Of a DNA stretch of 64,000 bases, positions 5,004 to 50,105 are shown piece by piece. Source of the DNA: an uncultured Eggerthellaceae bacterium (GTDB taxonomy: Bacteria; Actinomycetota; Coriobacteriia; Coriobacteriales; Eggerthellaceae); assembly GCA_934648845.1 (NCBI GenBank), contig CAKUFS010000010.1:327-64326 (forward strand), read 5' to 3'. The notes beneath the pieces were generated by a model. The model did not search any database and had not been told where the DNA came from. It saw only the letters and a list, made by a program, of their open reading frames with translations. Position numbers and translations under genes: made by a program. Numbering within the stretch: the first letter of the stretch is position 1; each line of letters opens with the position of its first letter.

Positions 5004-5284
5004 GTGAATCCTTTCTTGTGCTTTTTGCGGGAAACCGCATAAGGGGGTAGCGCGGATATGCGCGTGGGGCAATTGTACTCCAATGTCTGCGATTGGGCGC
5101 GTTGTTGTCGGGTTTTTTAACATGCGGCTAACATGATGCGGTTAAAATAGCTGTTTTGGAGTGGCGTGACGGAATTTGCCGTGCACATTTTTCGCTCCTT
5201 TTGTTGCTTCTGACGCTGCATTTGCTGCGGGCGCCGCCGCGCTCATGTATACTAATCCGCGCAAAGATTCGAAAGGAGAATCCG

Positions 5285-5710
5285 GTGATTAAAGAACTGG
5301 TAACCGATACCGACATTCTGTCCGTTACGTGCGAAAAAGCCACGGCCGAAGATGCTTCCGTGGCAGAAGACCTGGTAGATACGCTGCAATCCATGGAAGA
5401 TGCCGCATGCCTGGCCGCCAACCAAATTGGCGTGACGAAGCGCATCATTGCGTTCAGAGATGACCAGGACAATATCCACGTTATGTTCAACCCCTCGTTT
5501 AACCAGGCGCTTCGTCCGTCGAAGATGCCCGAAGAGTGCCTGTCGCTGCCTGAAGCCGGCCCGCAGATGGTACGTCGCTTCGATTGGATTCGCGTGGAGT
5601 TCGAGCAGCTTATCGATGGCGCATTGGTTGTAAAGAAACGCAACTACGAAGGCTGGACGGCTGAAATCATCCAGCACATGATTGATCACTGCAACGGCAA
5701 GCTGATTTAA
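5285..5710 (+). CDS. Peptide deformylase homologue with a non-canonical third motif
   Basis: GTG start at 5285 follows GAAAGGAGAA. Motif 1 is CLAANQIG and motif 2 is EECLSLP. Motif 3 reads QHMIDHCNG instead of QHExDHLxG. See the finding for this gene. Confidence 0.8.
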   Translation: MIKELVTDTDILSVTCEKATAEDASVAEDLVDTLQSMEDAACLAANQIGVTKRIIAFRDDQDNIHVMFNPSFNQALRPSKMPEECLSLPEAGPQMVRRFDWIRVEFEQLIDGALVVKKRNYEGWTAEIIQHMIDHCNGKLI

Positions 5711-5789
5711 GCGCGAAACTCCCGATCCTTGGCACGAGTCTAAGCCGCTGCGCTTGCGAAAGCCGATGCGCACCAGGAAACCAAGGTGC

Positions 5790-6019
5790 TTGTTGGAAAA
5801 GCGGGTGCGAATTCGGGCAAATGCACGATACTCGGTGGTTTGGTTTTGGCTTAGCGCACTGTTGACGCAACAGTTCACAACAAAAGCAAATACCGCATTG
5901 CTGTGACCTGGGAAAATAGAAACAATAAATCGGGGAGGACCGAACAGTCCTCCCCGATTTGCATTATAGACCACCGAATATCGTCGATTTGCCCGAAATA
6001 CCGGGCGTTTTGACAACAA
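5790..6019. mobile_element. MITE-like repeat family B, copy 1 (~230 bp, ~50-nt terminal inverted repeats)
   Basis: The left end is TTGTTGGAAAAGCGGGTGCGAATTCGGGCAAATGCACGATACTCGGTGGTT. The right end is GACCACCGAATATCGTCGATTTGCCCGAAATACCGGGCGTTTTGACAACAA, its imperfect reverse complement. A second copy lies at 29099-29317. The interior carries the hairpin TCGGGGAGGAC-CGAACA-GTCCTCCCCGA. Confidence 0.7.
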
Positions 6020-7854: not shown

Positions 7855-8730
7855 ATGCGCCAACGAAAACCGACAAATCTGAACGTGACGCTCGAGCGCT
7901 ACCACGAGCCCATCGTCGATGAGCCTTCTGCCGTGAAGGGCAGCTGGATACGCGCGTTCATGCCCGATGCCCGCGCTCTTTACCTGGATTTGGGCTGCGG
8001 TAAGGGCATTTTCCTTGCGGAGATTGCGCAAAAACACCCGGATGTGCTGTTCGTGGGAATCGACCACAGCGACGTATGCGTTGCGCGCGCGGCGCAAAAA
8101 GTCGTTGAGCAGGAGCTTCGCAACGTGCGCTTGATTTGCGCCGACGCCGCTGATTTGGAAAACATCTTTGGCGAAGGCGAGCTTGATTTGATTTACCTGA
8201 ACTTCAATTCGCCGTTTCCCAAGAAGAAACATGCTGAAAAGCGCCTGACGCATCTTGCGCATCTTACGCGATACCGACGCTTGCTGCGCCGCGGCGGCGT
8301 GATTGAAATGCGCACCGACAATGTTCTCTATTGGGAGTTTTCCCTGGTAGAACTCGATATTGCAGGGTATGAAATTTTAGCGCAATCCGATAATTTGCAT
8401 CGCGATGCCGCGTTGCTTGACGCCACGCTGGCAAGCGAGTACGACACGCGCACCACCGAGCGCGGAGCCCGCGTACGCTGGTTGCGCGCCTTGCCAGGCC
8501 CTGAGCCTGCCACGTGCGTGCAGACCGATAAGCTGGGCTTGGCCGAGTACCTTCCCCAGGACATCGAGAACTTCCACGAGATTCCCTATGGCATGGAAGA
8601 CACCGTCGCGAACATCCGGAGCCGCCGCGCGAATGCACGAGCGCGGGCGGAACGAGAGAAGGCGCAGCAGGAAAAAGCGGTTGCGCGCGTGCAGGACGAA
8701 ACGGGAAACGCAGTCGCAAGACAAGACTGA
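7855..8730 (+). CDS. trmB: tRNA (guanine46-N7)-methyltransferase with a basic C-terminal extension
   Basis: SAM motif LDLGCGKGIF, plus NFNSPFPKKKHAEKRL and RTDN. About 60 extra Arg/Glu/Ala-rich residues sit at the C-terminus. Confidence 0.85.
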   Translation: MRQRKPTNLNVTLERYHEPIVDEPSAVKGSWIRAFMPDARALYLDLGCGKGIFLAEIAQKHPDVLFVGIDHSDVCVARAAQKVVEQELRNVRLICADAADLENIFGEGELDLIYLNFNSPFPKKKHAEKRLTHLAHLTRYRRLLRRGGVIEMRTDNVLYWEFSLVELDIAGYEILAQSDNLHRDAALLDATLASEYDTRTTERGARVRWLRALPGPEPATCVQTDKLGLAEYLPQDIENFHEIPYGMEDTVANIRSRRANARARAEREKAQQEKAVARVQDETGNAVARQD

Positions 8731-8855
8731 CAAGGCGCACGCAGAACAAAGAACTCGAAACGAAACGCAAAATAACGCATATCGGACAAAACGCGCAAAC
8801 CGAACCGCAACAAGCAAGAAAGCAAGTAAGACGAATCCAAACCAAGGAGGCCGCA

Positions 8856-20319: not shown

Positions 20320-21762
20320 TTACTCGCTTTCCGCCGCAGCCGCATCGGCCTGAACCGGCTCCAGCGCCTTCTTCTTGCCATTATGCGACTTCGCACAGGT
20401 AGCCACCGCACCGGACATCGCAATCAATGCGATAACGTTCGGCAGAACCATGAGCTGGTTGAACATGTCCTGCATCTCCCAAACCAGATCGTTGGAAAGC
20501 AGCGAACCCAGGAACACGAAGAACACCGCCAGAACAGAGAACACGGGAAGCGCCTTCTTGCCAAACAGGTACACGAAATTAATCTTGGAGAACAAGTTCC
20601 AACCCAAGATGGTGCTGAAAGCGAAGAACAGCAGGCAGATAGCAACGAATGCATTGCCGAAGCCCGAACCGAACATCGTGCCGAACGCGTATTGAGCCAT
20701 GTTCGTCTTATTCAGGCCAGCCGCGGCAATAAAGTCGTACGCCTGCGTGTTGATGGCGCCGTCCTGAATGTAAACAGCAGAGATAACAACCAAAGCGGTC
20801 ATGGTAACCACAACGAACGTGTCAACGAAAACGCCAATGAAAGCAACAACGCCCTGCTCGTGCGGATCCTTAACGTTGGCCTGCGCGTGTGCATGAGGCG
20901 TAGAACCCATACCGGCTTCGTTGGAGAACAAGCCGCGCTTAGCACCCTGCGTCATTGCCGCAATAATGCCACCCACAGCACCGCCGAAATACGCCTCGGG
21001 GTTAAATGCGCTCTCGAAAATCAACGCAAATGTTGCAGGAATGGTGTCAAGACGCGTGCACAGAACAATCAAGCCGCCCACCAGGTAAATAACTGCCATC
21101 AGGGGAACCAGCTTCTCCGTAACGGATGCAATACGGGAAACACCGCCCACGAACACGAAGCCCGCAACAAGCGCGATGATAATACCCACAATCCAGGGAG
21201 CAATGCCGAACGCCGTAGAGCACGTAGAAGCGATAGAGTTCGACTGAACCATGCAGCCCATGAAGCCCAAGGACAAGATAATTGCCACGGCGAAGAAGGC
21301 CGCCAGGAACTTGCCCAAACCGCCCTTGAACGCGGTGCGGATGTAGTAGACCGGGCCACCATGGACCGCGCCATCTTCGTCAACCTTCTTGGTCATCTGC
21401 GCCAGAACAGCCTCGGCGTAGTTCGTGGCCATGCCCAAGAACGCGATAATCCACATCCAAAGGATAGCACCCGGGCCGCCCGTCAGGATTGCACCGCACG
21501 CACCAACGATGTTGCCCGTGCCTACCTGAGCGGCAATAGCGGTTGCCAGCGCCTGAAATGAGCTCATGCCGCTTTCTTGCTTGCCGCCGCGCAGCGAAAA
21601 GCCGCTGAACATGCGACGCCAGCCTTCGGCAAAGCAGCGAATCTGCACGAAACGCGTGCGGATGGTAAAGAACAGACCTGTTCCCACCAACAAAAAGAGC
21701 AAAACATAATTGGATAGATACCCGTTGATAGTTGTGACTACCCCGAGAGCAGCTGCCTCCAT
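20320..21762 (-). CDS. Alanine/glycine:cation symporter (AGCS family)
   Basis: 480-aa polytopic protein. The N-terminus ...INGYLSNYVLLFLLVGTGLFFTIRTRFVQIR is typical of AGCS. A glycine riboswitch lies upstream. Confidence 0.88.
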   Translation of the reverse strand: MEAAALGVVTTINGYLSNYVLLFLLVGTGLFFTIRTRFVQIRCFAEGWRRMFSGFSLRGGKQESGMSSFQALATAIAAQVGTGNIVGACGAILTGGPGAILWMWIIAFLGMATNYAEAVLAQMTKKVDEDGAVHGGPVYYIRTAFKGGLGKFLAAFFAVAIILSLGFMGCMVQSNSIASTCSTAFGIAPWIVGIIIALVAGFVFVGGVSRIASVTEKLVPLMAVIYLVGGLIVLCTRLDTIPATFALIFESAFNPEAYFGGAVGGIIAAMTQGAKRGLFSNEAGMGSTPHAHAQANVKDPHEQGVVAFIGVFVDTFVVVTMTALVVISAVYIQDGAINTQAYDFIAAAGLNKTNMAQYAFGTMFGSGFGNAFVAICLLFFAFSTILGWNLFSKINFVYLFGKKALPVFSVLAVFFVFLGSLLSNDLVWEMQDMFNQLMVLPNVIALIAMSGAVATCAKSHNGKKKALEPVQADAAAAESE

Positions 21763-21847
21763 AATCCCTTCTTTCTTTCTGCAGCGCTAACTGCGGTTTT
21801 AGTCTCTGAAGAGGGATAAAGCAGGCACCACGATGCCGCACAATCAA

Positions 21848-21965
21848 CCCCAGCTCTGTCCTTTAGCCTGAGAGATTCGGCGGCCAACCTGCGTGGGCGG
21901 CTCACCTTGCACCTTCGGCACTCATTCAAGAGTTCTCCAGAGCTTCCTCCGCACTCTGTTTCTCC
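21848..21965 (-). promoter_or_regulatory. Glycine riboswitch, single aptamer
   Basis: The minus strand reads GCTCTGGAGAACTCTTGAATGAGTGCCGAAGGTGCAAGGTGAGCCGCCCACGCAGGTTGGCCGCCGAATCTCTCAGGCTAAAGGACAGAGC. This carries the conserved CUCUGGAGA, GCCGAAGG.GCAA and AAUCUCUCAGGC.AAAGGACAGAG blocks of Rfam RF00504, closed by a GCTCTG/CAGAGC P1 stem. Confidence 0.85.
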
Positions 21966-31809: not shown

Positions 31810-31887
31810 AGAGCAAAAAAACGCACATTTGTTTGCTTTTTTATCGATAACGCAGTATCATGAATGCCTCAAAAAGAAAGGCCGCCC

Positions 31888-33657
31888 ATGAATACCGTCA
31901 ACCATTTCTCACTACCCTATTTGCTGCCTTACTGCTGGGACCGCATGCTGTCGTTTCTTGCCATGCGCGCCATCCCCGGCGTTGAAACGGTGCAGCAAGG
32001 CGCTTATTGGCGCACCGTGCGCGCCTACGATGGCAGCGGAAATGTTCTATGCGGATGGATTCACGCGGAAAATAGCTTGGCAAAATCCCAGATAGAAATC
32101 GAATTTGCAGACAATCTTGCTCCCGCCGCAGATTACCTAGAGAAGCGTTTGAAACACCTGTTTGATACTGAGCGTAACCCTACCGCCATCGGAAGCAAGC
32201 TGGAGAGCATGAACGAATATCACGAAGGCTCATTCGTTGCCGGAACACGTATTCCCGGGTGTTACGACGGCTTCGAGATGGCCTGCCGCGCCGTGCTGGG
32301 TCAACAGATTTCCGTGAAAGGAGCAAGTACCCTAGCAGGACGCATAGCATCGCATTTTGGGACGCCCCTAGATACAGACATTCCCGGGCTGGAATATCTC
32401 TTCCCCACTCCTGCAGACATACGCGCGCTGGCAAAAAATGCGCCCATCGAGGAATCACTTGGGTCTCTTGGCATTATCGGCACGCGCTGTCGGACCATGC
32501 TCGCGCTGGCGGAGTTGCTTGAACGCGACCCCGTAGCAATTGAGCCGTGCGCGAAAGGAGGGGCAACACCTGAAGAAAAGATTTCAGAGCTTGTAAAGTT
32601 ACCGGGCATTGGGGAATGGACCGCCCATTACATTGCGATGCGCTCCATGGGTTGGAGCGATGCCTTCCCCGCTACTGACCTGGGGATAATCAAATTTCTG
32701 GGCACCAAGAAGAAAAAGGAGCTTGTCGCAGCAGCAGAAAAATGGCGGCCCTGGAGATCGTACGCGGTCATGAACATGTGGACAACCGAACAAGCAGAAT
32801 TGCAAGAAACGCAGAGTAAGCAGATCGCGAAGAGCGAACACGCAAAGACAAAAGCCAAAATAGAAGCGAAATCATCGAACGAAATGTCTTCGGAAAAGAC
32901 GATGAACGAAGCAGGCAAGGCTCCTTCGAGATCAGCACAGAATACAAGGTCGGGAACGTTGCCCAAAAGAGCACTGACATCAAGACAAAAGAACGAGAAA
33001 GCGCCAAACGCGATATTGAAAGAAGCGGACGCAACGTCGCCGGAAGCTTCAGCGAAGAAGCCCAAGGCGGTCGCAAACGCCCAAGCGGCCACGAAGCATC
33101 AAAACATGCCAGCGATCGCAACGGCATGGTACGAAACACCTTTTATGGGACGCGTCATGGTAGCAGCAACCGATCAGGCTATTGTGGGATTATGGATGGA
33201 GGGACAAAAGTATTTCGGAGCCAGCATGCCCCGCGGTAGCGTTGCGGAAAACTCGGACCATCCCCTTATTCAGAAAGCGTTTTCGTGGCTCGACCGCTAC
33301 TACGCTGGAGACAAGCCCGCAATCTCCGAATTGACGCTTGAACCACAAGGCAGCGCGTTTCGCCAAGTTATTTGGAAGCTCCTCTGCGAAATTCCTTATG
33401 GACAGACCTCTACCTATGGCGAGCTTGCCGAAAAAGCTGCGGAGCTTATGGGAAAAGAGCACATGGCATCGCTTGCTGTGGGCGGAGCCGTGGGACACAA
33501 CCCCATCTCTGTCATTATCCCTTGTCATCGCGTAGTAGGCGCAAACGGGAGCCTTACCGGCTATGCGGGTGGGCTGGATAAGAAGATCGCACTCTTGAAG
33601 CACGAAGGCGTGGATACCGACAAGCTTTTCCGTCCCGTGAAAGGAACGGCGCTCTAG
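31888..33657 (+). CDS. Fusion protein: AlkA-like DNA-3-methyladenine glycosylase II, Lys-rich linker, and O6-methylguanine-DNA methyltransferase
   Basis: The N-terminal AlkA_N-like and HhH-GPD part contains LVKLPGIGEWTAHYIAMRSMGWSDAFPATDLG. A ~130-aa K/A/S/E-rich linker follows. The C-terminal Ogt domain carries IPCHRVVGANGSLTGYAGG. The start is set at ATG 31888. Confidence 0.85.
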   Translation: MNTVNHFSLPYLLPYCWDRMLSFLAMRAIPGVETVQQGAYWRTVRAYDGSGNVLCGWIHAENSLAKSQIEIEFADNLAPAADYLEKRLKHLFDTERNPTAIGSKLESMNEYHEGSFVAGTRIPGCYDGFEMACRAVLGQQISVKGASTLAGRIASHFGTPLDTDIPGLEYLFPTPADIRALAKNAPIEESLGSLGIIGTRCRTMLALAELLERDPVAIEPCAKGGATPEEKISELVKLPGIGEWTAHYIAMRSMGWSDAFPATDLGIIKFLGTKKKKELVAAAEKWRPWRSYAVMNMWTTEQAELQETQSKQIAKSEHAKTKAKIEAKSSNEMSSEKTMNEAGKAPSRSAQNTRSGTLPKRALTSRQKNEKAPNAILKEADATSPEASAKKPKAVANAQAATKHQNMPAIATAWYETPFMGRVMVAATDQAIVGLWMEGQKYFGASMPRGSVAENSDHPLIQKAFSWLDRYYAGDKPAISELTLEPQGSAFRQVIWKLLCEIPYGQTSTYGELAEKAAELMGKEHMASLAVGGAVGHNPISVIIPCHRVVGANGSLTGYAGGLDKKIALLKHEGVDTDKLFRPVKGTAL

Positions 33658-33845: not shown

Positions 33846-34283
33846 ATGGGTGATTTCTCAGAGCGGGTATATCGCGTTGTTGCAAGCATTCCCGCAGGTA
33901 AAGTGGCTAGTTATGGAACCATCGCGCGCCTGATGGGCAGCCCGCGCAGCGCCCGTTACGTAGGATTCGCACTGCGCAACAACCCCTCACCCGGCTCGGG
34001 GCTTGAAAACATCCCCTGTCATCGCGTGCTCTTCAAGGACGGCAGCCTGTGCGAAGGGTTTATTTTTGGCGGCCCCGGCGTTCAACGCGAGCTGCTTGAA
34101 GCAGAAGGCGTGACCTTTGCCGACAACAGCCATGTGGACATGGCTGCCTGCGAATGGGACGGCAGCGGATTCGTGGAGAACACAAGCTCAAGCGAAACCG
34201 AAGGCGGCGCAGCAGGCAAGGACACCAGCGCCCCTACTACTCCGCCCGCCGACTTCGATTGGCAAGCTGAACTGGGAGAATAA
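33846..34283 (+). CDS. MGMT-family (methylated-DNA-protein-cysteine methyltransferase DNA-binding domain) protein
   Basis: VYRVVASIPAGKVASYGTIARLMG…NIPCHRVL retains the PCHR active-site Cys. It has an acidic/Ser-rich tail. Confidence 0.8.
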   Translation: MGDFSERVYRVVASIPAGKVASYGTIARLMGSPRSARYVGFALRNNPSPGSGLENIPCHRVLFKDGSLCEGFIFGGPGVQRELLEAEGVTFADNSHVDMAACEWDGSGFVENTSSSETEGGAAGKDTSAPTTPPADFDWQAELGE

Positions 34284-34292
34284 TGCTCCAAA

Positions 34293-34892
34293 TTACCAGT
34301 TCGCGCGAATGAAATCCAAAAGCTCCTGATAAGTTTCCAGCGCAGGAATCTCTGGATACTGCTCTTTGAGCGTATCAGTGGTGCGGAAAAGTGCACCTGC
34401 CTTGGAATTTTGAATCATACGCACATCGTTGTAGCTGTCACCAGAAGCAATGGTATCAAAGCCCAAAGACTGGAACGCACGAACCGCCTTGTACTTCTGA
34501 TCATCGGTGCGCAGTTTATAGCCAGTGATTTCGCCATTTTCAGCGACCACGAGCTGATGACAGAAAATAGTGGGGTAACCCAACTTTTCCATAAGAGGAC
34601 GAGCAAATTCCTCAAACGTGTCGCTCAAGATGATGACCTGGGCAAACGAACGTAGCTCATCCATAAACTCACGAGCGCCCGGCAAAAGGTCAATGCCTGC
34701 GATGGTCTGCTGAATTTCCTTAAGCCCCAGACCGTGCTCTTTCAAAATGGCAAGACGATACTGCATGAGTTTGTCGTAATCAGGTTCATCGCGCGTAGTC
34801 TTTCGCAACTCGGGAATACCCGTAGCTTCCGCGAATTCAATCCAAATCTCCGGCGCGGTAACGCCCTCCAAATCCAAGCAAACAATATTCAT
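34293..34892 (-). CDS. thrH: ThrH-like HAD phosphatase (phosphoserine phosphatase / homoserine phosphotransferase)
   Basis: MNIVCLDLEGVTAPEIWIEFAEATGIPELRKTTRDEPDYDKLMQYRLAILKEHGL…ILSDTFEEFARPLMEKLGYPTIFCHQL…GDSYND is colinear with Pseudomonas ThrH as I recall it. Confidence 0.8.
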   Translation of the reverse strand: MNIVCLDLEGVTAPEIWIEFAEATGIPELRKTTRDEPDYDKLMQYRLAILKEHGLGLKEIQQTIAGIDLLPGAREFMDELRSFAQVIILSDTFEEFARPLMEKLGYPTIFCHQLVVAENGEITGYKLRTDDQKYKAVRAFQSLGFDTIASGDSYNDVRMIQNSKAGALFRTTDTLKEQYPEIPALETYQELLDFIRANW

Positions 34893-35237: not shown

Positions 35238-36485
35238 CTAACGAACGCGAAAGACGAGATACTCGTTCAAGCTGCCGGTACGCCCATCGGCGCGGAAGCA
35301 ATCGGCAAGCTGCGCAATATCGCTCACCGATGCCGCAAGCACCTTCACTTCCTCATCGGTGAAATGATGGCAATAACGGAAAACACCCTGGGTTTGCTGC
35401 CAGCCTAAAAGATAATCATTCGCATCCAGCCTCAAGCATAATCCCTGTTCAGAGAAGTGCTTCAAAGCAGCTTCATGAGACTCATGCGCTTTTTTCGCCA
35501 GCCCGGGGTCATCCATAAACCGCCACAGAGACACGGCAACAAGCCCGCCCGGAACCGTTGCTGCGCAAAGCGCGCGCAGCAAACGCTCCCGCGCCTCGCG
35601 TCCTGGAACGTGATGGAAGAACCCGAAGCACGCCGTCAAATCCGCGTTCACGCCTTCGGAGCCGGCACTCTTGCGCGCTGAGTCTTCGCGCGGCGCGTCT
35701 TCGCATGCATCGCCCGCGGAGTCGCCGGAGACGGGCACAACATCTGCGCCTTCAGAACCGCTGGACGCAAACGGCAAAGCGTGGCCTTCGATAAGCGCCG
35801 AAACGATATCGCACGACGTGAAAGCAACACCCGCAGGCGCACCGACCAACCGCTCGCAAGCATCAACAGCACGATAATCCCAGGTCGCGTTCGGCAACGC
35901 GCCTTCCAGAAAACTCTTGAACCGAACGTTTCCGCACGCAACGTCCAGAATGCGATGCACGAGCGGTGCGGATGCGTCTGCACCTTCCGGTTCGCCGCAC
36001 CGCAACGCACCCTCGCGTTGCGCGCCCGCGCCTTCGCGCGCCGCGCCCACGGCGGACGAGCGCATCCCAAACTCCGAAGTCCGAAACGCAGACGTGCCCG
36101 TGCCATCACCCGTAACACCTGCAGCGTCCAATGCACCGGCGCGCACCATGCCGTCCGCGCCATCCGCGCCTTCGCCGCTTGCCAGCCCATCACCGACAAC
36201 TGCCCCTTCGCCCGTAACACCCGCAGCGTCCGATGCGCTAGCGCACATCACGTCACCCTCGCCCGCGCCGACGGATCCAGCACTACTCACGCCGTCCGCG
36301 CCTTCGTCCGCGTCACCTGAGTCTTCGCCTTCCCAGCCGGTATCAGCCAAAACGCGCTGCCAGCCTGCCCACGCGCACTGCCGCGTTGCCGAAAACGACT
36401 CCGCCTGCGCCGCGTAAAACGCCTGCGTGGTGCGATTCAATATGTTTGCCGTTGATACGTCCATGCTCTCCCACGAATCCTGCAA
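35238..36485 (-). CDS. Class I SAM-dependent methyltransferase, Trm9/ALKBH8-MT-like, with two low-complexity insertions
   Basis: SAM motif ILDVACGNVRF. The C-terminal block is NDYLLGWQQTQGVFRYCHHFTDEEV (compare Trm9 …VPW…RYYHxF…GEL). About 130 aa of G/A/D/S-rich insert follows the N-terminal helix. It is divergent from elp3, with only 24 bp between the annotated start codons. Confidence 0.7.
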   Translation of the reverse strand: MQDSWESMDVSTANILNRTTQAFYAAQAESFSATRQCAWAGWQRVLADTGWEGEDSGDADEGADGVSSAGSVGAGEGDVMCASASDAAGVTGEGAVVGDGLASGEGADGADGMVRAGALDAAGVTGDGTGTSAFRTSEFGMRSSAVGAAREGAGAQREGALRCGEPEGADASAPLVHRILDVACGNVRFKSFLEGALPNATWDYRAVDACERLVGAPAGVAFTSCDIVSALIEGHALPFASSGSEGADVVPVSGDSAGDACEDAPREDSARKSAGSEGVNADLTACFGFFHHVPGREARERLLRALCAATVPGGLVAVSLWRFMDDPGLAKKAHESHEAALKHFSEQGLCLRLDANDYLLGWQQTQGVFRYCHHFTDEEVKVLAASVSDIAQLADCFRADGRTGSLNEYLVFRVR

Positions 36486-36509
36486 AAGAATCCTGTAAAA
36501 TATACGGTT

Positions 36510-38345
36510 ATGGAAAAAATCATTTTAGACATAGCCGCTGCCCTGCGCCGCGCCGCTGCCACGGGCGAAACGTTTGACGCCGCCCAGCTCGTGCGCCTGC
36601 TGCACGCTTACAACAAGCCGCTGGGGCAAAGCGAGCAGTTCTACACAAAAAAGAAGCTGCTGCCATATTACCTGAAAACGAAGGCGAACGACCCCGCGCG
36701 CTGGGAAAGCTGGAACATTGACCCCGCAACCGAGCGCGCCTTGGTGCAGCTGCTGCAAATCAAGCCGCGTCGCACCAGCTCGGGCGTGGCAACCATCACG
36801 GTCATCACGAAGCCGTGGGGCTGCTCGAGCAACTGCATCTACTGCCCCAACGACATCCGCATGCCGAAAAGCTACTTGTCGAACGAACCTGCCTGCCAGC
36901 GCGCCGAGCGCAATTTTTTTGACCCGTACCTGCAGGTTACCGCACGTTTACATGCCCTGCGCGAGATGGGTCACACTACCGATAAAGTGGAACTTATTGT
37001 GCTGGGCGGCACGTGGACCGACTACCCCGAGGACTACCAATACTGGTACATGACGCAGCTGTTTCGCGCGCTCAACAATGGCGAAAGCGCCCCCGAATAT
37101 GCAGCTGAACTGCGTGAGCGCTACGAGCGCGCGGGCATTCCCGAGACCGAAGAGGCCCTGAACGCCTTCGCCGCGCCCGCTCAGGAGGCAATCGACGCAG
37201 GCACAGCAACGTTCAACGAAGCGCACAGCATGCTCTACGGACAAGACAGTCCTTGGCAACGCTTGGCTTCGTGGCAAACCGCGGAGCCCAGCGAGCTTGA
37301 ACAGCAGCAACGCATAAACGAAACCGCCGAACACCGTTGCGTGGGCCTGGTCATTGAAACGCGTCCCGACACTATCACGCCGCAAACGCTCACGCGCGCA
37401 CGGCGCTTTGGCTGCACAAAAATCCAAATGGGCATCCAAAGTCTTGATCCCGCCGTGCTGGCCGCGAATCATCGAGCTACCAGCATCCAGGAAATCCAGC
37501 GCGCCTTTGCGCTGTTGCGCCTGTTCGGCTTCAAACTGCACACGCATTTCATGGTGAACCTTTACGGCTCAACACCCGAACGCGACAAGGCGGATTTCCA
37601 GCAATTCGTGACCAACGAGCACTTCCTTCCCGATGAAATCAAGGTGTACCCATGCGTGCTCACCAAAGGAACACGGCTTGAACGCCTTTATGAACAGGGA
37701 AAATGGCAATCTTACGCTGAAGATGATCTGCTGGATATCTTGGTGCACGACATATGCGCCACGCCCGCGTACTGCCGCATATCGCGTATGATTCGCGACA
37801 TTTCAAGCGACGACATTATTGCCGGCAACAAGAAAACGAACTTGCGCCAGCTGGCCGAGCTTTCCGCCGCGAAAACCGGTGAACGCATTCAGGAAATGCG
37901 CTACCGCGAGATCAAGGGGAAAGCCACCGACCTCTCTGAGCTGCATCTCGACGTGGTTCCTTACGAAACGTCGGTTTCGCGCGAGTTCTTCTTGCAGTGG
38001 GTCACACCGCAAAACGAGCTGGCAGGGTTTTTGCGCCTGTCACTTCCCCTGTGCAACGCTTTGGCAACGCTTGGTTCCGAATCACCCATTTTGCCTGGAC
38101 AAGCCATGATTCGCGAGGTACATGTGTATGGACGCGCGGCGCACATTGACGGCGAATCCCAAAACGCACAGCATCTGGGCCTGGGCAAAAAGCTCATCGC
38201 GCGGGCATGCGAAATCGCCACAAGCGCCGGTTACGACGAGATAAACGTGATCAGCGCCATTGGCACGCGCGCCTATTATCGCTCGCTCGGATTCTCGGCA
38301 AGCGAAAACGGTCTTTATCAAACGAAAAGGATTGCACATGAGTAG
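36510..38345 (+). CDS. elp3: Elp3-family radical-SAM / GNAT enzyme (tRNA U34 cm5 modification-type)
   Basis: Radical-SAM cluster CSSNCIYCPND, Elp3-type layout (…ELIVLGGTWTDYP…GCTKIQMGIQSLD…) and C-terminal GNAT QHLGLGKKLIARACEIA. 611 aa. Confidence 0.85.
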   Translation: MEKIILDIAAALRRAAATGETFDAAQLVRLLHAYNKPLGQSEQFYTKKKLLPYYLKTKANDPARWESWNIDPATERALVQLLQIKPRRTSSGVATITVITKPWGCSSNCIYCPNDIRMPKSYLSNEPACQRAERNFFDPYLQVTARLHALREMGHTTDKVELIVLGGTWTDYPEDYQYWYMTQLFRALNNGESAPEYAAELRERYERAGIPETEEALNAFAAPAQEAIDAGTATFNEAHSMLYGQDSPWQRLASWQTAEPSELEQQQRINETAEHRCVGLVIETRPDTITPQTLTRARRFGCTKIQMGIQSLDPAVLAANHRATSIQEIQRAFALLRLFGFKLHTHFMVNLYGSTPERDKADFQQFVTNEHFLPDEIKVYPCVLTKGTRLERLYEQGKWQSYAEDDLLDILVHDICATPAYCRISRMIRDISSDDIIAGNKKTNLRQLAELSAAKTGERIQEMRYREIKGKATDLSELHLDVVPYETSVSREFFLQWVTPQNELAGFLRLSLPLCNALATLGSESPILPGQAMIREVHVYGRAAHIDGESQNAQHLGLGKKLIARACEIATSAGYDEINVISAIGTRAYYRSLGFSASENGLYQTKRIAHE

Positions 38346-39006
38346 CATCTTCGACTTGCTTGCGCCCGACCGCGGTGCGCGAGAACGCGAAAACCAGATT
38401 GTAGCTTGCAACAAGGATACCGCGGAATTCGGGCTCTCGCTCACGCGCGAACAAGCCCACGAGCTGGACGTTGCGCACTGCCAGCTGCTGGATGCGCACG
38501 ACCGCGTGGAGTTTGGCACCTCGGGAACCATCCAGGTCATCGAAGGGTTTGCTTCTTCGCCTTACCTGGAGCAATTCAATTACGCCGACACGCTGAGTGC
38601 GCTGCAAGAGAAGTTCTATGAGCTGCGCGCGCAGGCAGGCGTTGAGATTTTCGACGACGAGATCATCGACGGCATGCGCCTTTTGTTCGATGGCGATGCG
38701 GGCGGAACCGTTGATCTTTTGGCCACGTGCACGCTGAACATGGTCATGGAGGCATACGACACGCAGACCGGCACGCTTGAAGAACGCCAGCGCGAAGTTA
38801 TTCCCGACATGACGCAGACCACGGAGGTTCCGCAATTCGAAGAAAATGTGAGCGAAGTGTTCGCGCAGGCAATGGAAGAAGGTCGGCAAGCGCTTGACGA
38901 TGCAGCTGCGGCGGCCATAACAAGCCCCTGGGACCCCAGCGAGTGGGTCGATGACATTACCGCGCCGGGCTTTGAGGGAGAGAAGTGGGACGATGACTTT
39001 GAATAG
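38338..39006 (+). CDS. Hypothetical acidic protein, translationally coupled to elp3
   Basis: ATG 38338 lies 8 nt inside the elp3 3' end (CACATGAGTAG). 222 aa, ending in a very acidic tail (…WDPSEWVDDITAPGFEGEKWDDDFE). No motif I can assign. Confidence 0.6.
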   Translation: MSSIFDLLAPDRGARERENQIVACNKDTAEFGLSLTREQAHELDVAHCQLLDAHDRVEFGTSGTIQVIEGFASSPYLEQFNYADTLSALQEKFYELRAQAGVEIFDDEIIDGMRLLFDGDAGGTVDLLATCTLNMVMEAYDTQTGTLEERQREVIPDMTQTTEVPQFEENVSEVFAQAMEEGRQALDDAAAAAITSPWDPSEWVDDITAPGFEGEKWDDDFE

Positions 39007-39739
39007 CGAAAACGTGAGGAGTGCGCAGGGCGGCGCAAGTGCAACAGACACCGGAGAAGCCACCGACACGACGAGCACAGCGAATGCGGTCACGAACGTC
39101 ACCCTTCTGCGAACCGCCGACCAAGCAATCGACAAGCAAGACCTTGCCGCGCTTTCCACCAAAGTGCAAGACGGCCTTATGCGCCTGTTTGTGAAGCAAT
39201 GCCGCCTGTATACGTGCGGCGGCAGCGCTTCTATCACGTCGCTTGAGGCGCATGATTTGCTTGACTCTATTCGCTTCGTGCTGCGTGCGCACGATTTGGA
39301 AGACCCCGCAACGCTGGCGCGCTTGGCAAGCGATGATATGGATACCTTGTTTCATCAGGGGCTTCAGGATATCAATTGCCGCGTGGACGATACCATGGAG
39401 CTGTGGAACCAGGTTTGCTTGACCATGCCACCCATCAAGAACATCGCGCTGCGCGACACACTGGCAAGCATCGGACAATTCCGCAAGGTCTACGACACGT
39501 ACTTCGCCGCCTTCGCCGTGCCGGTAAGCATTGACTATCCGCTGCACGACCCCGTTCCCGAAACGCTGCAAGGCGTGGATTACGTGCATGAATGGCTTGC
39601 GCGCTGCCTGAAGGAAGCGCAATACATCGCGCAATTCGACACGAAGGAGTGCATCGCGGTGCTCAAGCGCGCTTGCCCCGATTACAAGGGCTTGCTCATC
39701 AACCTTTACGAGCCTATTCACCGCCACTTCGGAGATTAG
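38993..39739 (+). CDS. Hypothetical protein, translationally coupled to the preceding gene
   Basis: ATG 38993 follows GAGGGAGAGAAGTGGGACG and overlaps the upstream stop by 14 nt. 248 aa. No recognisable catalytic motif. Confidence 0.6.
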   Translation: MTLNSENVRSAQGGASATDTGEATDTTSTANAVTNVTLLRTADQAIDKQDLAALSTKVQDGLMRLFVKQCRLYTCGGSASITSLEAHDLLDSIRFVLRAHDLEDPATLARLASDDMDTLFHQGLQDINCRVDDTMELWNQVCLTMPPIKNIALRDTLASIGQFRKVYDTYFAAFAVPVSIDYPLHDPVPETLQGVDYVHEWLARCLKEAQYIAQFDTKECIAVLKRACPDYKGLLINLYEPIHRHFGD

Positions 39740-45316: not shown

Positions 45317-47605
45317 TCAGTCATCCCACCCGTAAAGAGCCGCGTACTGAATAGCGAATGCATTCGTTGCGTCAACATCGTTGTTCCACTTCACATCGGC
45401 GCGAGAATACATGCTTTCGTAATCAGCGCGGTCGGCGTACGTATCGGGAGACACCACCATATCGTAGGCAATCTGCGCATCAACGATGTTAAGCACACCG
45501 TTTCCATTCACATCGCCGTCGAGTTTCGCATGACTTCCGATGAAATACCCGGGCACGGCGACGCCGTTATCAACGCGCGCACGCGAAACATCGGTGCACG
45601 ATGCATCAAATACGGTGCCTTCGCCGCCTTCAAGCCTGGTGCAGCCGGCGAACATGCCTTCGGATTGCGTAACCTGCTTTACCGCCAGTTTCGATGCGAA
45701 AATGGCATCAAGCCAGCTGCAATTCGCGAACATCAGCCTCATATCGGTCACGCGCGACGTGTCCAACTCGGAAATTTCCACCGAATCCAGCCCCGTGCAG
45801 CCAGCGAACATGCTGTAACAGGTTTTCGCCGCAACGCCCTGACTTATTCTGACGTATCCAATATCCTCGCGATAACGATACCAGGGCACCGCCTCGCAAT
45901 CTTCCCCCCAGTCATCCAGCACACCCTGGGTTAGACCCGACAACGGACGAATCTGAAGAACATCCGAGCAATACAAATCGTCATAGTCAACGAACCACTC
46001 GCACGTGCCGCTGCGCTTCCAACCTTCGGTAACGCGATGCGCCGTGTACATCATTGCGCCCGATGTGCGATTGGCATTTGCCTCAGCCACTTGGGCTGTT
46101 GTCTCATACAAAACACCCGTAGTATCCATCCAAACGCATTCATCCGCGAAGCTCTTGTCCATATGAACACCTGCAGGCAGCGTCACATTCGCAAGAGAGG
46201 TGCAATTTTCGAACATGCCCTCCGTTTCCACCGATGGCGAGAACGACCAACCCGAAAGGTCAATTGAAATCAGCGACGTGCAGCAATCGAACATGTAATG
46301 CATGTCCGTTACGCCAGACAAATCCAAACCCGAAAAATCAACCGACGTCAGATTGTTGCAGCCCACAAAAAGACTCCGGCATGTTTTGGCCACCACACCT
46401 TGTTTGAAGCGAGCCGATATTATTTCATCGGCGTGCTCACTCCAGGGCGCGCCGTAATGATTTTCCTGCCAATCCGGCAAAGCACCCTTCCCGTAACCGG
46501 GCAGCGGACGAACCGTGAGCAGGCCGTCATCGTCTATCTTCCATTCGCATCCGCCGCTTTGCGTCCATCCCGAGGAAGGCATTGCATCGGTGGTCGTGTA
46601 TGTTTCCGCACCTGAAACGCGCTCGACGTTCGCCCAAAGCATCTCTTCGTTCGAATCATATACCGCGCCTGTCGTATCTACCCACCGAGAATCATGATGG
46701 GCGCCCATGGGGGACGTTCTGAGATACGCAAGAGTATTATTATCGGTCAAATCAAGCCCCGCTGGCAACGTGAGCTGCGACACAAGCGGCGCGCCCGCAA
46801 AGGAATACATCGCATTCGTTATCGCAGAGCCGGTAAACGACGAAATGTCCACCGATTCAAGCGACAAGCAATTCTGAAACAAGCCATACATGTTGGTCAC
46901 GCGCGCAGCATTGATTCCCGATAAGTTGATGCTCTTTATTGACGAGCACTCATTAAACATGGAGCTCATACTGGTCACATTCGATGCGTCAACACCTTGG
47001 AAATTTACCGTTTGCAAGGCTGCGCAACCATAGAACATGCACGTCATGTCAGTCACCCGAGAGGTATCCAAGCCCGAAAGGTCAACAGACACTAAATTAG
47101 TCCATTCCGAGAACATGTGACGACACGTCTCAGCAACAACACCAGGCTCAATGACTACGGACGTAATAGAAGCGCGAAACGATTCGTCGCGCAGCCAGGG
47201 CGCTTGCTCGGTGCGCCACAAATCCAACACGCCCGAAGCGCCGTTGCCCAAAGGACGGACGGTAAGCAGGCCGGCGTCATCGACGCGCCATTCGCACGTG
47301 CCCAATTGGTTCCATCCCGCGGTGAGTGTCGCATCAGTAGCAGAGGCGGGGTCTGCCGAAGGACCTGCTGTCGGGGCAGATGCGTGAGGCGATGCGGACT
47401 CGGTAGCCGCAGCTACCGAAGACGATGCAGGCTCGGTAGCCGCAGCGGCGGAAACAACCGCCGAGCGCGCAGCTTCTTCCGCGCTGCCTTCCGCGTCTAC
47501 CGCAAGAACTTGCACGGGGAAAAGCCCCGACACTAAGACGATCGAAAGAAGAGCGCTCGCGCACGCACGCGCCGAAGAGTGAGCCGCAGAGGGCTGCTTT
47601 TTCAT
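45317..47605 (-). CDS. Secreted BspA-type (DUF285-like) leucine-rich-repeat protein with C-terminal dockerin-like module, copy 1
   Basis: The start is set at ATG 47605 (MKKQPSAAHSSARACASALLSIVLVSG… signal). Three modules run GWxxSGxCEWxxDDxGLLxxRPL… and then repeats of LDTSxVTDMxxMFxxCxxL. The C-terminus GDVNGNGVLNIVDAQIAYDMV…DVKWNNDVDATNAFAIQ resembles two dockerin Ca-binding loops. Confidence 0.8.
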   Translation of the reverse strand: MKKQPSAAHSSARACASALLSIVLVSGLFPVQVLAVDAEGSAEEAARSAVVSAAAATEPASSSVAAATESASPHASAPTAGPSADPASATDATLTAGWNQLGTCEWRVDDAGLLTVRPLGNGASGVLDLWRTEQAPWLRDESFRASITSVVIEPGVVAETCRHMFSEWTNLVSVDLSGLDTSRVTDMTCMFYGCAALQTVNFQGVDASNVTSMSSMFNECSSIKSINLSGINAARVTNMYGLFQNCLSLESVDISSFTGSAITNAMYSFAGAPLVSQLTLPAGLDLTDNNTLAYLRTSPMGAHHDSRWVDTTGAVYDSNEEMLWANVERVSGAETYTTTDAMPSSGWTQSGGCEWKIDDDGLLTVRPLPGYGKGALPDWQENHYGAPWSEHADEIISARFKQGVVAKTCRSLFVGCNNLTSVDFSGLDLSGVTDMHYMFDCCTSLISIDLSGWSFSPSVETEGMFENCTSLANVTLPAGVHMDKSFADECVWMDTTGVLYETTAQVAEANANRTSGAMMYTAHRVTEGWKRSGTCEWFVDYDDLYCSDVLQIRPLSGLTQGVLDDWGEDCEAVPWYRYREDIGYVRISQGVAAKTCYSMFAGCTGLDSVEISELDTSRVTDMRLMFANCSWLDAIFASKLAVKQVTQSEGMFAGCTRLEGGEGTVFDASCTDVSRARVDNGVAVPGYFIGSHAKLDGDVNGNGVLNIVDAQIAYDMVVSPDTYADRADYESMYSRADVKWNNDVDATNAFAIQYAALYGWDD

Positions 47606-47704
47606 AGAGTTCCTTCCCAACGATATTGTTTTTATCGTTTCGCAGTATAGCCGAAGCAAGCCAGATTGCAGCCGCTCGAGAGCGCGTAAAAAACGAAAGG
47701 GCGC

Positions 47705-47840: not shown

Positions 47841-50105
47841 TCAGTCATCCCACCCGCAAAGAACAGCGCGCTGAATGGCGAACGCATTCGTTGCGTCAAC
47901 ATCGTTGTTCCACTTCACGTCGGCGCGAGAATACATGCTTTCGTAATCGGCGCAATCGGCGTACGTCTCGGGCGACTTCACCATATCGTAGGCAATCTGC
48001 GCGTCAACAATGTTAAGCGCGCCGTTTCCGCTCACATCGCCGTCAAGCTTCGCATGTCTTCCGATGAAATACCCGGGTGCGACGGCGCCGTTATCAACGC
48101 GCGCACGCGAAATGTCGGTATATGACGCGTTAAATGCCGTACCGCAGCCGCCTTCAAGCGCGGTGCAACCGGCAAACATGCCTTCTGATTGCGTGACCTG
48201 CTTTATGGCCAGCTTCGATGCGAAAATGGTTTCAAGCTGCTCGCAGTTGGCAAACATCAGCCGCATATCGGCTACCCGCGAAGTATCCAGCTCGGAAATT
48301 ACTGCCGAGTACAAGTTGGTGCAGCCATAGAACATGCCATAACAGGTTTTCGCTGCAACGCCCTGCTCGATTCGAATGCACTCGATTCCGTCTCGCCACG
48401 GGTACCAGGGAACGTCCTCGTAATTGCCCGACCAGTCGGCCAGCGTTCCTTGCGTAAACCCAGGAAGCGGACGAATAACAAGCTCTCCTTCGCTCATCGA
48501 CCATTCGCAGGTGCCGCATCGATCCCAACCACCCGTAGGACGAATCGCCGTATACGTCATGCTTCCCGTTTCGCGCGCAGCGTTGGCTGCAAGCATATCG
48601 GCGGTCGAGCTGTAAAGCGCGCCCGTTGCGTCTTTCCAGGAAAGATTATCTGCGGCATCATCGACCAGGCGCACTCCCGCAGGCAAAATCAACTCCGTCA
48701 AAGATGAGCAGTCACGAAACATCCGGGTCGTATCCGCTTTCTGCACGTTATCTATGCCGGTAAGGTCAACGCGAGTAAGCTTTGCGCAACTATCGAACAT
48801 ATAGCGCATATCTGTAACTTGGGATGTATCCAACCCCGACAGATCAAAGGAGCTCAAGTTGTAGCAATTCTCGAAAAGACCGAAGCACGTTTTGGCAATA
48901 ACGCCTTGCTCGAATCGGGCTGAAACAATGTCTTCGCTTTTCCCAGACCAGGGTGCGTTATAGACGCCTTCACCCCAATCAGGCAATACCCCTTGCTCGA
49001 AGCCAGGAAGCGGGCGAACAACCAGCAAACCGCTGCTATCCACCATCCATTCGCAGCCGCCGCTTTGCGTCCAGCCCGAAGAAGGCGCTGCATTGGTAAC
49101 GGTATATGTTTCCGCGCCCGTTGTACGCATCGCATTCGCGCGAAGCATCTCATCGGTTGAACCATATACCGCGCCCGTCGTATCTACCCAGCGAAAATCT
49201 TGGCGGCCTCCTGTTGAAGACACGCCGATATACGCATGGGATTCTTGCTCCGTCAAGTTCAATTCCGCTGGCAGCGTTAGCTGCGAAAGAGAATCAGCTC
49301 CCATGAAGGAATACCCCGCATTGGTTATAGCGGAAGCACTGAACGACGAGATGTCCACCGACTCAAGGGCAGCGCAATCGCGGAACAAATCATACATATC
49401 CGTCATGTGCGCGGCGTTGATTCCCGATAAATCGATTCTTTTTATCGACGAGCATCCCCTGAACATGCCATACATGCTAGTCACGCAGGATGCATCGATG
49501 CCCGAGAAATCCACCGACTCAAGGGCTGTACAATTACGAAACATGAGAGCCATGTCAGTCACCTGAGAGGTATCCAAGCCCGACAAGTCAGCCGAAATCA
49601 ACGATGCGCAATCGGCAAACATAAAGCGACACGTAGGCGTAGACACCCCCGACTCAATGCGCACCGCCGTGATAGAGGCGCGCGTATCTTCGCTGGCCGC
49701 CCATGGCGCATAGCTAGGGCTCCACGAATCCAACACGCCCGAAGCGCCGTTGCCCAAAGGACGAATGGTAAGCAGGCCGGCGTCATCGATGCGCCATTCG
49801 CAGGTGCCCGACTTGTTCCATCCCTCGGTAAGCGTCGCGTCTGTAGCAGGGGCGGGGTCTGCCGAAAATTTCACTTCCGCGGGTGACGCAGCTACATCGT
49901 CTGCGGAAGCGGTTGCAGCAACGTCAAGCAACGTAGGTGTCGTTTCCGCAAATGCATTCGTCGTAAGAGTCGATGACGCAATTGCAGCAGATGCATCTGT
50001 CGCAAACACGCGCGCAGGGAAGAGCCCCGACGCCAAGGTGATCGAAAGAAGAACGCTTACGCATGCACGCGCCGAAGAGTGAACCGCAGAGGAATGTTTT
50101 TTCAT
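47841..50105 (-). CDS. Secreted BspA-type leucine-rich-repeat protein with C-terminal dockerin-like module, copy 2
   Basis: It is a paralogue of 45317-47605 with the same three-module layout, signal peptide and dockerin-like tail. The 5' leader and 3' flank are also duplicated. Confidence 0.8.
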   Translation of the reverse strand: MKKHSSAVHSSARACVSVLLSITLASGLFPARVFATDASAAIASSTLTTNAFAETTPTLLDVAATASADDVAASPAEVKFSADPAPATDATLTEGWNKSGTCEWRIDDAGLLTIRPLGNGASGVLDSWSPSYAPWAASEDTRASITAVRIESGVSTPTCRFMFADCASLISADLSGLDTSQVTDMALMFRNCTALESVDFSGIDASCVTSMYGMFRGCSSIKRIDLSGINAAHMTDMYDLFRDCAALESVDISSFSASAITNAGYSFMGADSLSQLTLPAELNLTEQESHAYIGVSSTGGRQDFRWVDTTGAVYGSTDEMLRANAMRTTGAETYTVTNAAPSSGWTQSGGCEWMVDSSGLLVVRPLPGFEQGVLPDWGEGVYNAPWSGKSEDIVSARFEQGVIAKTCFGLFENCYNLSSFDLSGLDTSQVTDMRYMFDSCAKLTRVDLTGIDNVQKADTTRMFRDCSSLTELILPAGVRLVDDAADNLSWKDATGALYSSTADMLAANAARETGSMTYTAIRPTGGWDRCGTCEWSMSEGELVIRPLPGFTQGTLADWSGNYEDVPWYPWRDGIECIRIEQGVAAKTCYGMFYGCTNLYSAVISELDTSRVADMRLMFANCEQLETIFASKLAIKQVTQSEGMFAGCTALEGGCGTAFNASYTDISRARVDNGAVAPGYFIGRHAKLDGDVSGNGALNIVDAQIAYDMVKSPETYADCADYESMYSRADVKWNNDVDATNAFAIQRAVLCGWDD

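Follow-up and report, generated by a model that had tools for sequence, protein, structure and literature searches.

A conserved pair of genes for Elp3 and a Trm9-like methyltransferase in Coriobacteriia and Chloroflexota as a candidate bacterial mcm5U34 pathway

Elp3 together with Trm9 constitutes the eukaryotic and archaeal route to 5-methoxycarbonylmethyluridine at the wobble position of tRNA (mcm5U34), a modification that has been tied to translation with codon bias, to responses to stress, and to neurological disease in humans. A 64,000-nucleotide stretch of DNA from an uncultured Eggerthellaceae bacterium (GCA_934648845.1, contig CAKUFS010000010.1, positions 327 to 64,326; hereafter the window; G+C 52–60%) encodes an Elp3 homologue divergently adjacent to a methyltransferase, which raises the question of whether the same two-step route exists in Bacteria. 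An earlier note, made from the letters of the window, had proposed a eukaryote-style pathway to mcm5U34 or its precursor 5-carboxymethyluridine (cm5U34) for this gene pair, and the comparative analysis described here supports that interpretation in silico. The main features of the locus are as follows.

36510..38345, plus strand: Elp3 with radical S-adenosylmethionine (radical-SAM, rSAM) and GNAT/KAT acetyltransferase domains, 611 aa (TIGR01211, Pfam, PDB relatives)
36510..36821, plus strand: extended N-terminal region of Elp3, 104 aa with 16 Lys+Arg, ahead of the rSAM motif
36822..36848, plus strand: rSAM iron–sulfur motif CSSNCIYCP, Elp3 aa 105–113 (read directly from the sequence)
35238..36464, minus strand: Trm9-like class I SAM methyltransferase, 408 aa from the ATG at 36464 (profiles, AlphaFold2 (AF2) core model)
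35238..36485, minus strand: longest open reading frame (ORF) of the methyltransferase, with a TTG start, 415 aa (7 aa more than from ATG 36464)

Both ORFs were recovered at the coordinates of the earlier note, 35238..36485 (−) and 36510..38345 (+), and the strings quoted there, CSSNCIYCP, the GNAT tail, and the methyltransferase C-terminal block LLGWQQTQGVFRYCHHFTDEEV, were all found in the translations. The spacing of the start codons was also correct, with 24 bp between the TTG at 36485 and the Elp3 ATG at 36510 and 45 bp if the methyltransferase starts at its second Met (ATG 36464). The latter is the likely true start, giving a protein of 408 aa, because the homologues in the family alignment start at MDxxTAxxL.

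Elp3 and its conserved neighbour

The plus-strand protein has the sequence features of a bona fide, full-length Elp3. It matched the NCBIfam model TIGR01211 over model positions 39–522 of 522 with 418.4 bits (E=3.5e-125; curated cutoff 350 bits), and Pfam Radical_SAM (PF04055) and Radical_SAM_C (PF16199) both exceeded their cutoffs; the GNAT matches of Pfam were sub-threshold (17.7–18.9 bits), yet lay at the expected C-terminal position. The best solved relatives were the Dehalococcoides protein DmcElp3 (5L7J, 293 bits), MinElp3 from Methanocaldococcus infernus (275 bits), and eukaryotic Elp3 (225–236 bits). The completeness claimed in the earlier note was borne out by the CxxxCxxC motif of the rSAM domain, the Radical_SAM_C region, and a GNAT domain with QHLGLG. 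Sequence alignments showed that CSSNCIYCP corresponds to CPGKCIYCP of DmcElp3, with CxxxCxxCP kept in 8/8 bacterial Elp3s examined, and that the acetyl-CoA motif QHLGLGKKL corresponds to QHRGLGRKL.

A basic N-terminus is important for tRNA recognition and is missing from DmcElp3 (Lin et al. 2019, PMC6367351). The alignment of the window Elp3 with DmcElp3 begins at query residue 86, equivalent to Dmc residue 4, and 15–22 Lys+Arg precede the rSAM motif in eight bacterial homologues. Placed beside DmcElp3 (PDB 5L7J/5L7L/6IA6), the window protein shares the rSAM and KAT architecture, the Fe–S and acetyl-CoA motifs, and a stand-alone existence without the other Elongator subunits, but differs in its Lys/Arg-rich N-terminus of about 100 aa, in some 70 aa inserted into the rSAM domain, and in its conserved Trm9-like neighbour. 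The rSAM insertion occupies aa ~190–262 (window ~37077..37295); its spacing is the same in some other Coriobacteriia Elp3s (L035, L061), and the 553-aa Elp3s of Chloroflexota apparently lack most of it.

To place the locus in a wider context, 80 reference-genome Elp3 loci of a Coriobacteriia set (L001–L080; 47–96% Elp3 identity) were compared, covering Eggerthellaceae, Collinsella, Slackia, Adlercreutzia, Atopobium, Olegusella, and others. The nearest were Hadza-gut Eggerthellaceae metagenome-assembled genomes, with 94–96% identity. The methyltransferase was located at most 6 kb from Elp3 in 70/80 loci, which corresponds to 70/73 informative ones, as seven of the ten negative loci have truncated flanks and hence are uninformative. 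The pair occurs in at least five distinct arrangements. In 30 reference loci the genes are divergent and adjacent as in the window; in Collinsella about 2 kb of XRE-family helix-turn-helix and LiaG-like genes is inserted between them; in one locus (L040) the methyltransferase lies 4 bp downstream of Elp3 on the same strand, and in three (L046, L047, L065) it lies upstream on the same strand. The genes between other split pairs are unrelated insertions.

A metagenome scan seeded by an Elp3 alignment headed by an Anaerolineae protein revealed more than 557 stretches encoding Elp3, 80 loci of which were kept. Here the methyltransferase was found immediately upstream on the opposite strand in 55/80 loci, equal to 55/64 informative ones after setting aside 16 negative loci with less than 1 kb of upstream sequence. 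The names given by NCBI assign these environmental proteins to Chloroflexota/Anaerolineales, and Elp3 identity between the two phyla is only ~43–46%. Look-ups centred on the methyltransferase instead, in contigs of 4.4 Mb and 1.2 Mb, agreed, with Elp3 divergent and adjacent in both. The pairing noticed in the window is thus kept in other Elp3-bearing bacteria. Clustering of the ORFs from all 160 loci left Elp3 and the methyltransferase as the only flank families common to both phyla, the other cross-phylum clusters being antisense shadows inside Elp3, and disclosed no conserved neighbour that could serve as a third partner or resemble Trm112. Adjacency across two phyla is far beyond chance, and the conserved unit consists of exactly two genes. 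A literature search, with most subscription journals outside its reach, turned up no publication that connects Elp3 to Coriobacteriia and no description of a bacterial Trm9 or of a bacterial Elp3 partner.

The methyltransferase and its relation to Trm9

The full-length methyltransferase showed no match in Pfam, NCBIfam, or the PDB (phmmer), because two disordered low-complexity inserts mask its family membership:

35976..36314, minus strand: low-complexity insert 1, ~aa 51–163, Gly/Ala/Asp/Ser/Glu/Val-rich, in the loop before β1
35652..35768, minus strand: low-complexity insert 2, ~aa 233–271, Gly/Ala/Asp/Ser-rich, in the loop before β4

The insert-free core of 250 aa gave a weak match to a generic class I methyltransferase family (Methyltransf_25), and its AF2 model displayed Rossmann topology with a predicted local distance difference test (pLDDT) score of 91.8. 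In the full-length model, aa 58–158 of insert 1 form a coil with pLDDT <50 and insert 2 has low pLDDT at aa 237–243 and 259–270, with the core above 88 in most blocks, so that judging by the models the enzyme looks intact despite the inserts. A repeat scan indicated that the inserts are not based on DNA tandem repeats, and they are missing from most family members, which measure 245–300 aa. In total the disordered insert amounts to about 150 aa; the length varies widely in close relatives (322–425 aa, 65–84% core identity), and other members (P0148, P0253, P0254) carry different inserts at the same and at other loops, suggesting a family that appears unusually tolerant of loop expansion. At source the protein is annotated just as 'class I SAM-dependent methyltransferase'. 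The family comprises 1,583 clusters (50% identity) at E≤1e-30 and is characterized by the invariant motifs FY, SFSxTR…W, D(V)ACGN, FGFxHHVP, W, GDYLLGW, RYCHxF, and LNEY.

Profiles were then built for the Coriobacteriia methyltransferase family (A1) and for the Chloroflexota clade (A4), and aligned with a profile of 27 fungal Trm9s by hhalign. A1 matched Trm9 at 98.3% (E=1.9e-14), and after excision of residues 172–236 of Saccharomyces cerevisiae Trm9 (ScTrm9; reference sequence 100% identical to P0260 'Trm9p'), a yeast-specific Lys/Glu-rich insertion, the alignment became full-length over 204 columns at 98.7% (E=1.8e-16). The C-terminal halves alone matched weakly (E=0.006), with W168 out of register owing to the yeast insertion, a fault that the same excision fixed. 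The likeness to Trm9 that had been claimed for the C-terminal block was recovered in this alignment, where DYLLGW pairs with DVFVPW and RYCHHFTDEEV with RYYHLYREGEL. A4 matched Trm9 at 99.2% (E=1.6e-19) and A1 at 100% (E=1.2e-45), the latter value identifying the two clades as the same family. Chloroflexota proteins also reached a median of 41–48 bits and a maximum of 62–68 bits on the fungal Trm9 hidden Markov model (HMM); this clade is closer to Trm9 and bridges the Coriobacteriia family to it. Several Chloroflexota members are labelled 'tRNA (uracil-5-)-methyltransferase TRM9' by the Joint Genome Institute (JGI) pipeline.

Searches of single sequences gave the same direction. Against 177,635 PDB sequences, A1 ranked the Yarrowia Trm9 (YlTrm9, 5cm2_Z) first, though narrowly (24.5 vs 23.7 bits), in part owing to a crystal construct without the first 38 residues; for full-length S. 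cerevisiae Trm9 hmmsearch gave 36.4 bits (E=2.9e-8 at equal database size), compared with 23.7 bits for the best generic methyltransferase. By profile, then, the nearest characterised relative of the methyltransferase is Trm9 rather than a small-molecule methyltransferase. In a representative search the best 150 matches were all close family members, a result silent on Trm9 or ALKBH8 in the tail. The assignment of the window protein to Trm9 is considered to rest on profile-to-profile alignment, an active-site signature, and transitive homology, not on raw score. The best non-Trm9 structure on the fungal Trm9 profile was PDB 1ve3_A (PH0226 of Pyrococcus horikoshii; 38.2 bits), aligned from the N-terminal helix, and PH0226 might be an archaeal Trm9 orthologue with a structure.

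The conservation of individual residues is regarded as the decisive evidence for the relationship with Trm9. In ScTrm9, R29, D72, H116, W145, W168, R241, Y243, and N271 are required in vivo, and roles have been proposed for Y18 and H115 (Létoquart et al. 2015, PMC4678810); R29 was proposed to bind the carboxylate of cm5U and N271 to read the O2/N3 edge of U34 (PMC4678810). In a joint alignment of 87 sequences from fungal Trm9, Coriobacteriia (30), and the Chloroflexota clade (30), Y18, F25, T28, R29, D72, H115, H116, W145, D163, W168, R241, and H244 were invariant across all three families, and Y242 was Tyr in both bacterial families and Tyr or Phe in fungi. The window methyltransferase keeps seven of the eight mutationally essential residues, Y243 being Cys.

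In the numbering of the insert-free core, the N-terminal helix Y18…FSxTR is represented by Y17, F24, S25, T27, and R28, invariant in 30/30 Coriobacteriia, and in the Chloroflexota clade by Y, F, T, and R in 30/30 and S in 28/30. SAM motif I is present as DVACGN, the acidic residue of motif II is an invariant D81 (equivalent to ScTrm9 D72), and the His-His dyad H126/H127 of FGFFHHVP (H284/H285 in the 408-aa protein) corresponds to H115/H116 and is likewise invariant. The same holds for W156 (W145) and W197 (W168), with the spacing D192…W197 matching D163…W168, and for R205, Y206, and H208 (R241, Y242, and H244). N242, the equivalent of N271, is present in the window protein and is Asn in 29/30 Coriobacteriia. 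Of the shared residues, all but the SAM-binding D72 fall outside the generic SAM-binding core motifs. At the level of sequence, it is thereby established what the two enzymes are, that their catalytic residues are conserved, and that the pairing extends over two phyla.

A possible route to mcm5U34 and its alternatives

From the gene pair we infer its chemistry and products, its tRNA substrates, its independence of Trm112, and its replacement of MnmE/MnmG in the following manner. The divergent genes would constitute a self-contained two-step pathway that, like its archaeal and eukaryotic counterparts, acts on the wobble U34 in a subset of tRNAs. In the first step, Elp3 alone, without Elp1/2/4/5/6, would use its [4Fe-4S]/SAM radical domain and GNAT-bound acetyl-CoA to carboxymethylate U34 at C5, yielding cm5U34. 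In the second step, R28 (R29 of Trm9) and the His-His dyad would position the carboxylate of cm5U, and the Trm9-like SAM methyltransferase would methyl-esterify cm5U34 to mcm5U34, which may go on to the 2-thiolated derivative mcm5s2U if a 2-thiolase acts too. A probability of roughly 70% is assigned to this two-step, two-protein pathway.

Previous studies of related systems are consistent with both steps. Archaeal Elp3 makes cm5U in vitro (PMC7663514, PMC13315578), and it is tRNA, but neither peptides nor nucleic acids of other kinds, that sets off acetyl-CoA hydrolysis in the bacterial (DmcElp3), archaeal, and eukaryotic enzymes (PMC6367351). In Sulfolobus (S. solfataricus) the Elp3 and Trm9 genes are clustered, and in Haloferax volcanii Trm9 binds Trm112 (PMC6144793) and mcm5U is documented in tRNA (PMC7663514). 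The window pair resembles these archaeal systems in its stand-alone Elp3 and Trm9 encoded by clustered genes, but it is bacterial, and its genes are typically divergent with a predicted leaderless Elp3 transcript; binding to Trm112 is documented for the archaeal Trm9. With Trm9, the corresponding domain of ALKBH8, and archaeal Trm9, the methyltransferase shares the class I SAM fold, the N-terminal helix Y…FSxTR, an HH dyad that follows β4, a W that follows β5, and the β-hairpin with D….W and R-Y-x-H. It differs from Trm9 in being bacterial, in having Cys or Ala in place of Y243, in lacking the yeast Lys/Glu-rich insertion, in carrying its disordered inserts at other loops, and in that a gene for the Trm112 partner was not found nearby.

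In Coriobacteriia, the pathway probably supplies the function of MnmE/MnmG, namely an xm5-type group on U34. These enzymes, which form 5-carboxymethylaminomethyl- and 5-aminomethyluridine (cmnm5U/nm5U34), meet the same need in the tRNAs of split codon boxes but are unrelated in kind (a GTPase and an FAD/folate enzyme) and in chemistry. MnmE/MnmG are reported to be absent only in Actinobacteria (PMC6063277), and it is proposed for this reason that the Elp3 route was retained in Coriobacteriia. The more ambitious statement, that Coriobacteriia (among them such abundant genera of the human gut as Collinsella, the Eggerthella group, Slackia, and Adlercreutzia) replaced MnmE/MnmG by a two-protein Elp3→Trm9 route to mcm5(s2)U34 that dispenses with Elp1/2/4–6 and Trm112 and is also present in Chloroflexota (Anaerolineales), is tentative, with the odds leaning against it.

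Several observations weigh against the proposed pathway. A 2020 review found no direct evidence for carboxymethyl-type uridines (xcm5U) in bacteria (PMC7663514). Eukaryotic and archaeal Trm9 need Trm112, and no conserved Trm112-like neighbour was present in the flanks of the 160 loci. Chloroflexota are not among the bacteria reported without MnmE/MnmG, and replacement therefore provides no general rationale. The pairing itself has exceptions, with three informative loci of the Coriobacteriia set (L049, L052, and L079, the last from Anaerolineae) negative even by HMM search and nine environmental loci, adequately flanked, showing no methyltransferase near Elp3. In raw scores, the Coriobacteriia proteins obtained 9–39 bits on the fungal Trm9 HMM (median 18–23, maximum 33–39) and did not exceed the best non-Trm9 PDB chains at 37–38 bits, and several generic methyltransferases outranked the truncated 5cm2_Z on the Rossmann core when A4 was searched against the PDB. 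A Foldseek comparison of the AF2 model with the PDB was non-discriminating, since each of the 871 matches with E≤0.001 was a Rossmann methyltransferase and Trm9 came tenth. Finally, the position of Y243 is Cys in 25/30 and Ala in 5/30 Coriobacteriia and Val in the Chloroflexota clade, and the position of N271 is Gly in the Chloroflexota clade, with an Asn two residues earlier.

These substitutions bear on the first alternative, in which the pair does act on U34 of tRNA and the product of the methyltransferase is not the mcm5U ester, the enzyme modifying another Elp3-derived side chain or atom or serving only some tRNAs. The pocket indeed differs, at Y243 in both bacterial clades and at N271 and W33 (Gln) in Chloroflexota, and the bacterial proteins have a six-residue loop between the equivalents of D270 and N271 as well as variable inserts. 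Even the yeast steps after cm5U are incompletely understood, 5-carbamoylmethyluridine (ncm5U) being reported to build up in trm9 mutants (PMC3110198). Set against this, the residues with a proposed role in holding the uracil ring and the carboxylate (R29, H115/H116, R241, W145, and W168) are invariant (PMC4678810), and the Y243A variant of ScTrm9 keeps about 10% activity (206 vs 2105 units; PMC4678810, Table 2), demonstrating that Y243 is not strictly required for the chemistry. A different product is considered improbable.

A second alternative is that the pair modifies a non-tRNA substrate, a protein or a small molecule that would first be acetylated or alkylated and afterwards methylated, and that its likeness to a tRNA pathway reflects no more than shared ancestry. 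The very weak in vitro activity of DmcElp3 (PMC7663514), the fact that xcm5U has so far not been observed in bacteria, and the many natural-product methyltransferases among the top Foldseek matches would fit such a role, as would the surroundings, since a tRNA scan found no tRNA genes in the window and no other tRNA-modification genes were seen nearby. Contrarily, the tRNA-triggered acetyl-CoA hydrolysis of Elp3 (PMC6367351), the extended basic N-terminus linked to tRNA binding in these Elp3s, and the retention in the methyltransferase of the residues that Trm9 uses for cm5U and tRNA all speak for tRNA, and the ORF clustering of the 160 loci displayed no conserved biosynthetic-cluster genes around the pair, leaving a non-tRNA substrate only a slim chance. 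That the adjacency is functionally meaningless and the methyltransferase an unrelated housekeeping or small-molecule enzyme, as the missing family assignment of the full-length protein and the partial conservation of other neighbours such as ThrH could suggest, is strongly disfavoured by a linkage that outlasts at least five arrangements and the insertion of unrelated genes, spans two phyla at ~43–46% Elp3 identity, and includes no further flanking family common to both.

These findings alter the view of Elp3 in Bacteria. According to the 2020 review, bacterial Elp3 was known from Dehalococcoides only (PMC7663514), and a 2026 paper mentioned 'numerous bacteria' with Elp3 alone (PMC13315578); in the earlier picture it was a rarity from one hard-to-culture genus, without a known in vivo product or partner (PMC7663514, PMC6367351). 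The present data show that bacterial Elp3 is common, in metagenomic stretches and in many Coriobacteriia genera, and is usually accompanied by a dedicated Trm9-like methyltransferase, so that a system known from archaea and eukaryotes is found as a conserved module in Bacteria. The carriers include culturable gut bacteria, among them Slackia piriformis YIT 12062, Slackia isoflavoniconvertens DSM 22006, Adlercreutzia spp., and Collinsella isolates AF29-7AC and AF20-14LB, which makes the product of bacterial Elp3 accessible to routine nucleoside mass spectrometry and genetics. The pair may explain how one actinobacterial class copes with the reported phylum-wide loss of MnmE/MnmG, and it offers a minimal two-protein system, possibly Trm112-independent, for the mechanistic study of Elongator chemistry. 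Were the pathway to hold for Coriobacteriia and Chloroflexota, mcm5U would be a modification shared by life's three domains.

Intergenic region and neighbouring genes

The short region between the two start codons contains the following elements.

36465..36509, no strand: divergent intergenic region, 45 bp, with candidate promoters (read directly)
36496..36501, plus strand: TAAAAT, −10-like, 8 nt before the Elp3 ATG (read directly)
36475..36482 and 36488..36495: direct repeat GAATCCTG (read directly)
within 36465..36509, minus strand: GGGAGAG, Shine–Dalgarno-like, preceding the methyltransferase ATG

Of 42 distinct upstream regions of Coriobacteriia, 39 had a TAnnnT element at a distance of 5–10 nt from the Elp3 ATG, compared with 6% at other offsets, and this position implies a leaderless Elp3 mRNA conserved across Coriobacteriia. 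The Elp3 promoter would then fill the 45-bp gap and reach into the methyltransferase gene at its 5' end. The earlier note had deduced overlapping promoters from the spacing; the conserved element before Elp3 favours that deduction, and a consensus promoter scan of 36300–36700 found no full σ70 −35/−10 site, so the claim stands in part. The two genes may be co-regulated. The direct repeat GAATCCTG is confined to close relatives (L001–L003 and L007, with one mismatch in L048).

Further genes and elements of the window are listed below.

34293..34892, minus strand: ThrH-like phosphatase of the HAD family, directly downstream of the methyltransferase (NCBIfam PRK13582, 294 bits)
33846..34283, plus strand: stand-alone Ogt-like protein, 145 aa, with a PCHRV motif
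31864..33657, plus strand: fusion of an AlkA-N/HhH-GPD glycosylase and Ogt with a long Lys/Ala/Ser-rich linker, 597 aa
38260..39006 and 38951..39739, plus strand: DUF6323/DUF6179 gene pair, immediately downstream of Elp3
20320..21762, minus strand: AgcS-family amino-acid carrier gene
21846..21950, minus strand: glycine riboswitch, 57.8 bits, upstream of the AgcS-family carrier gene
45317..47659 and 47841..50105, minus strand: two adjacent PARCEL-repeat surface proteins (TIGR02167), 780 and 754 aa
56974..57149, plus strand: flavin mononucleotide (FMN) riboswitch, 91.7 bits

The ThrH-like gene accompanies the pair in 22/80 Coriobacteriia loci (including L038, L040, L043, L046, L047, L053, and L060–L068), where it follows the methyltransferase, lies directly upstream of Elp3, or is convergent after Elp3, and it is absent from the loci of Collinsella, Slackia, and Chloroflexota. 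It could represent relic synteny or a lineage-specific third partner. The two alkylation-repair genes lie just past the methyltransferase and ThrH, a neighbourhood limited to close relatives (six loci); yeast Trm9 and human ALKBH8 are both connected with the alkylation-damage response. An apparent methyltransferase–Ogt fusion (P0220) was rejected, as two adjacent genes seem to have been joined there by read-through or a frame artefact. On the other side of the pair, the longest DUF6323 ORF overlaps the 3' end of Elp3, and DUF6323 and DUF6179 occur in eight and six loci, respectively, belonging to the closest relatives only. In one Collinsella locus (L009; 2199..3038 (−), 4042..5903 (+), and 7909..8787 (+)), a TrmB-like gene (TrmB being the tRNA methyltransferase for 7-methylguanosine at position 46, m7G46) adjoins the Trm9-like gene with 117.6 bits vs a 132-bit cutoff, and a spermidine-synthase-like gene follows Elp3.

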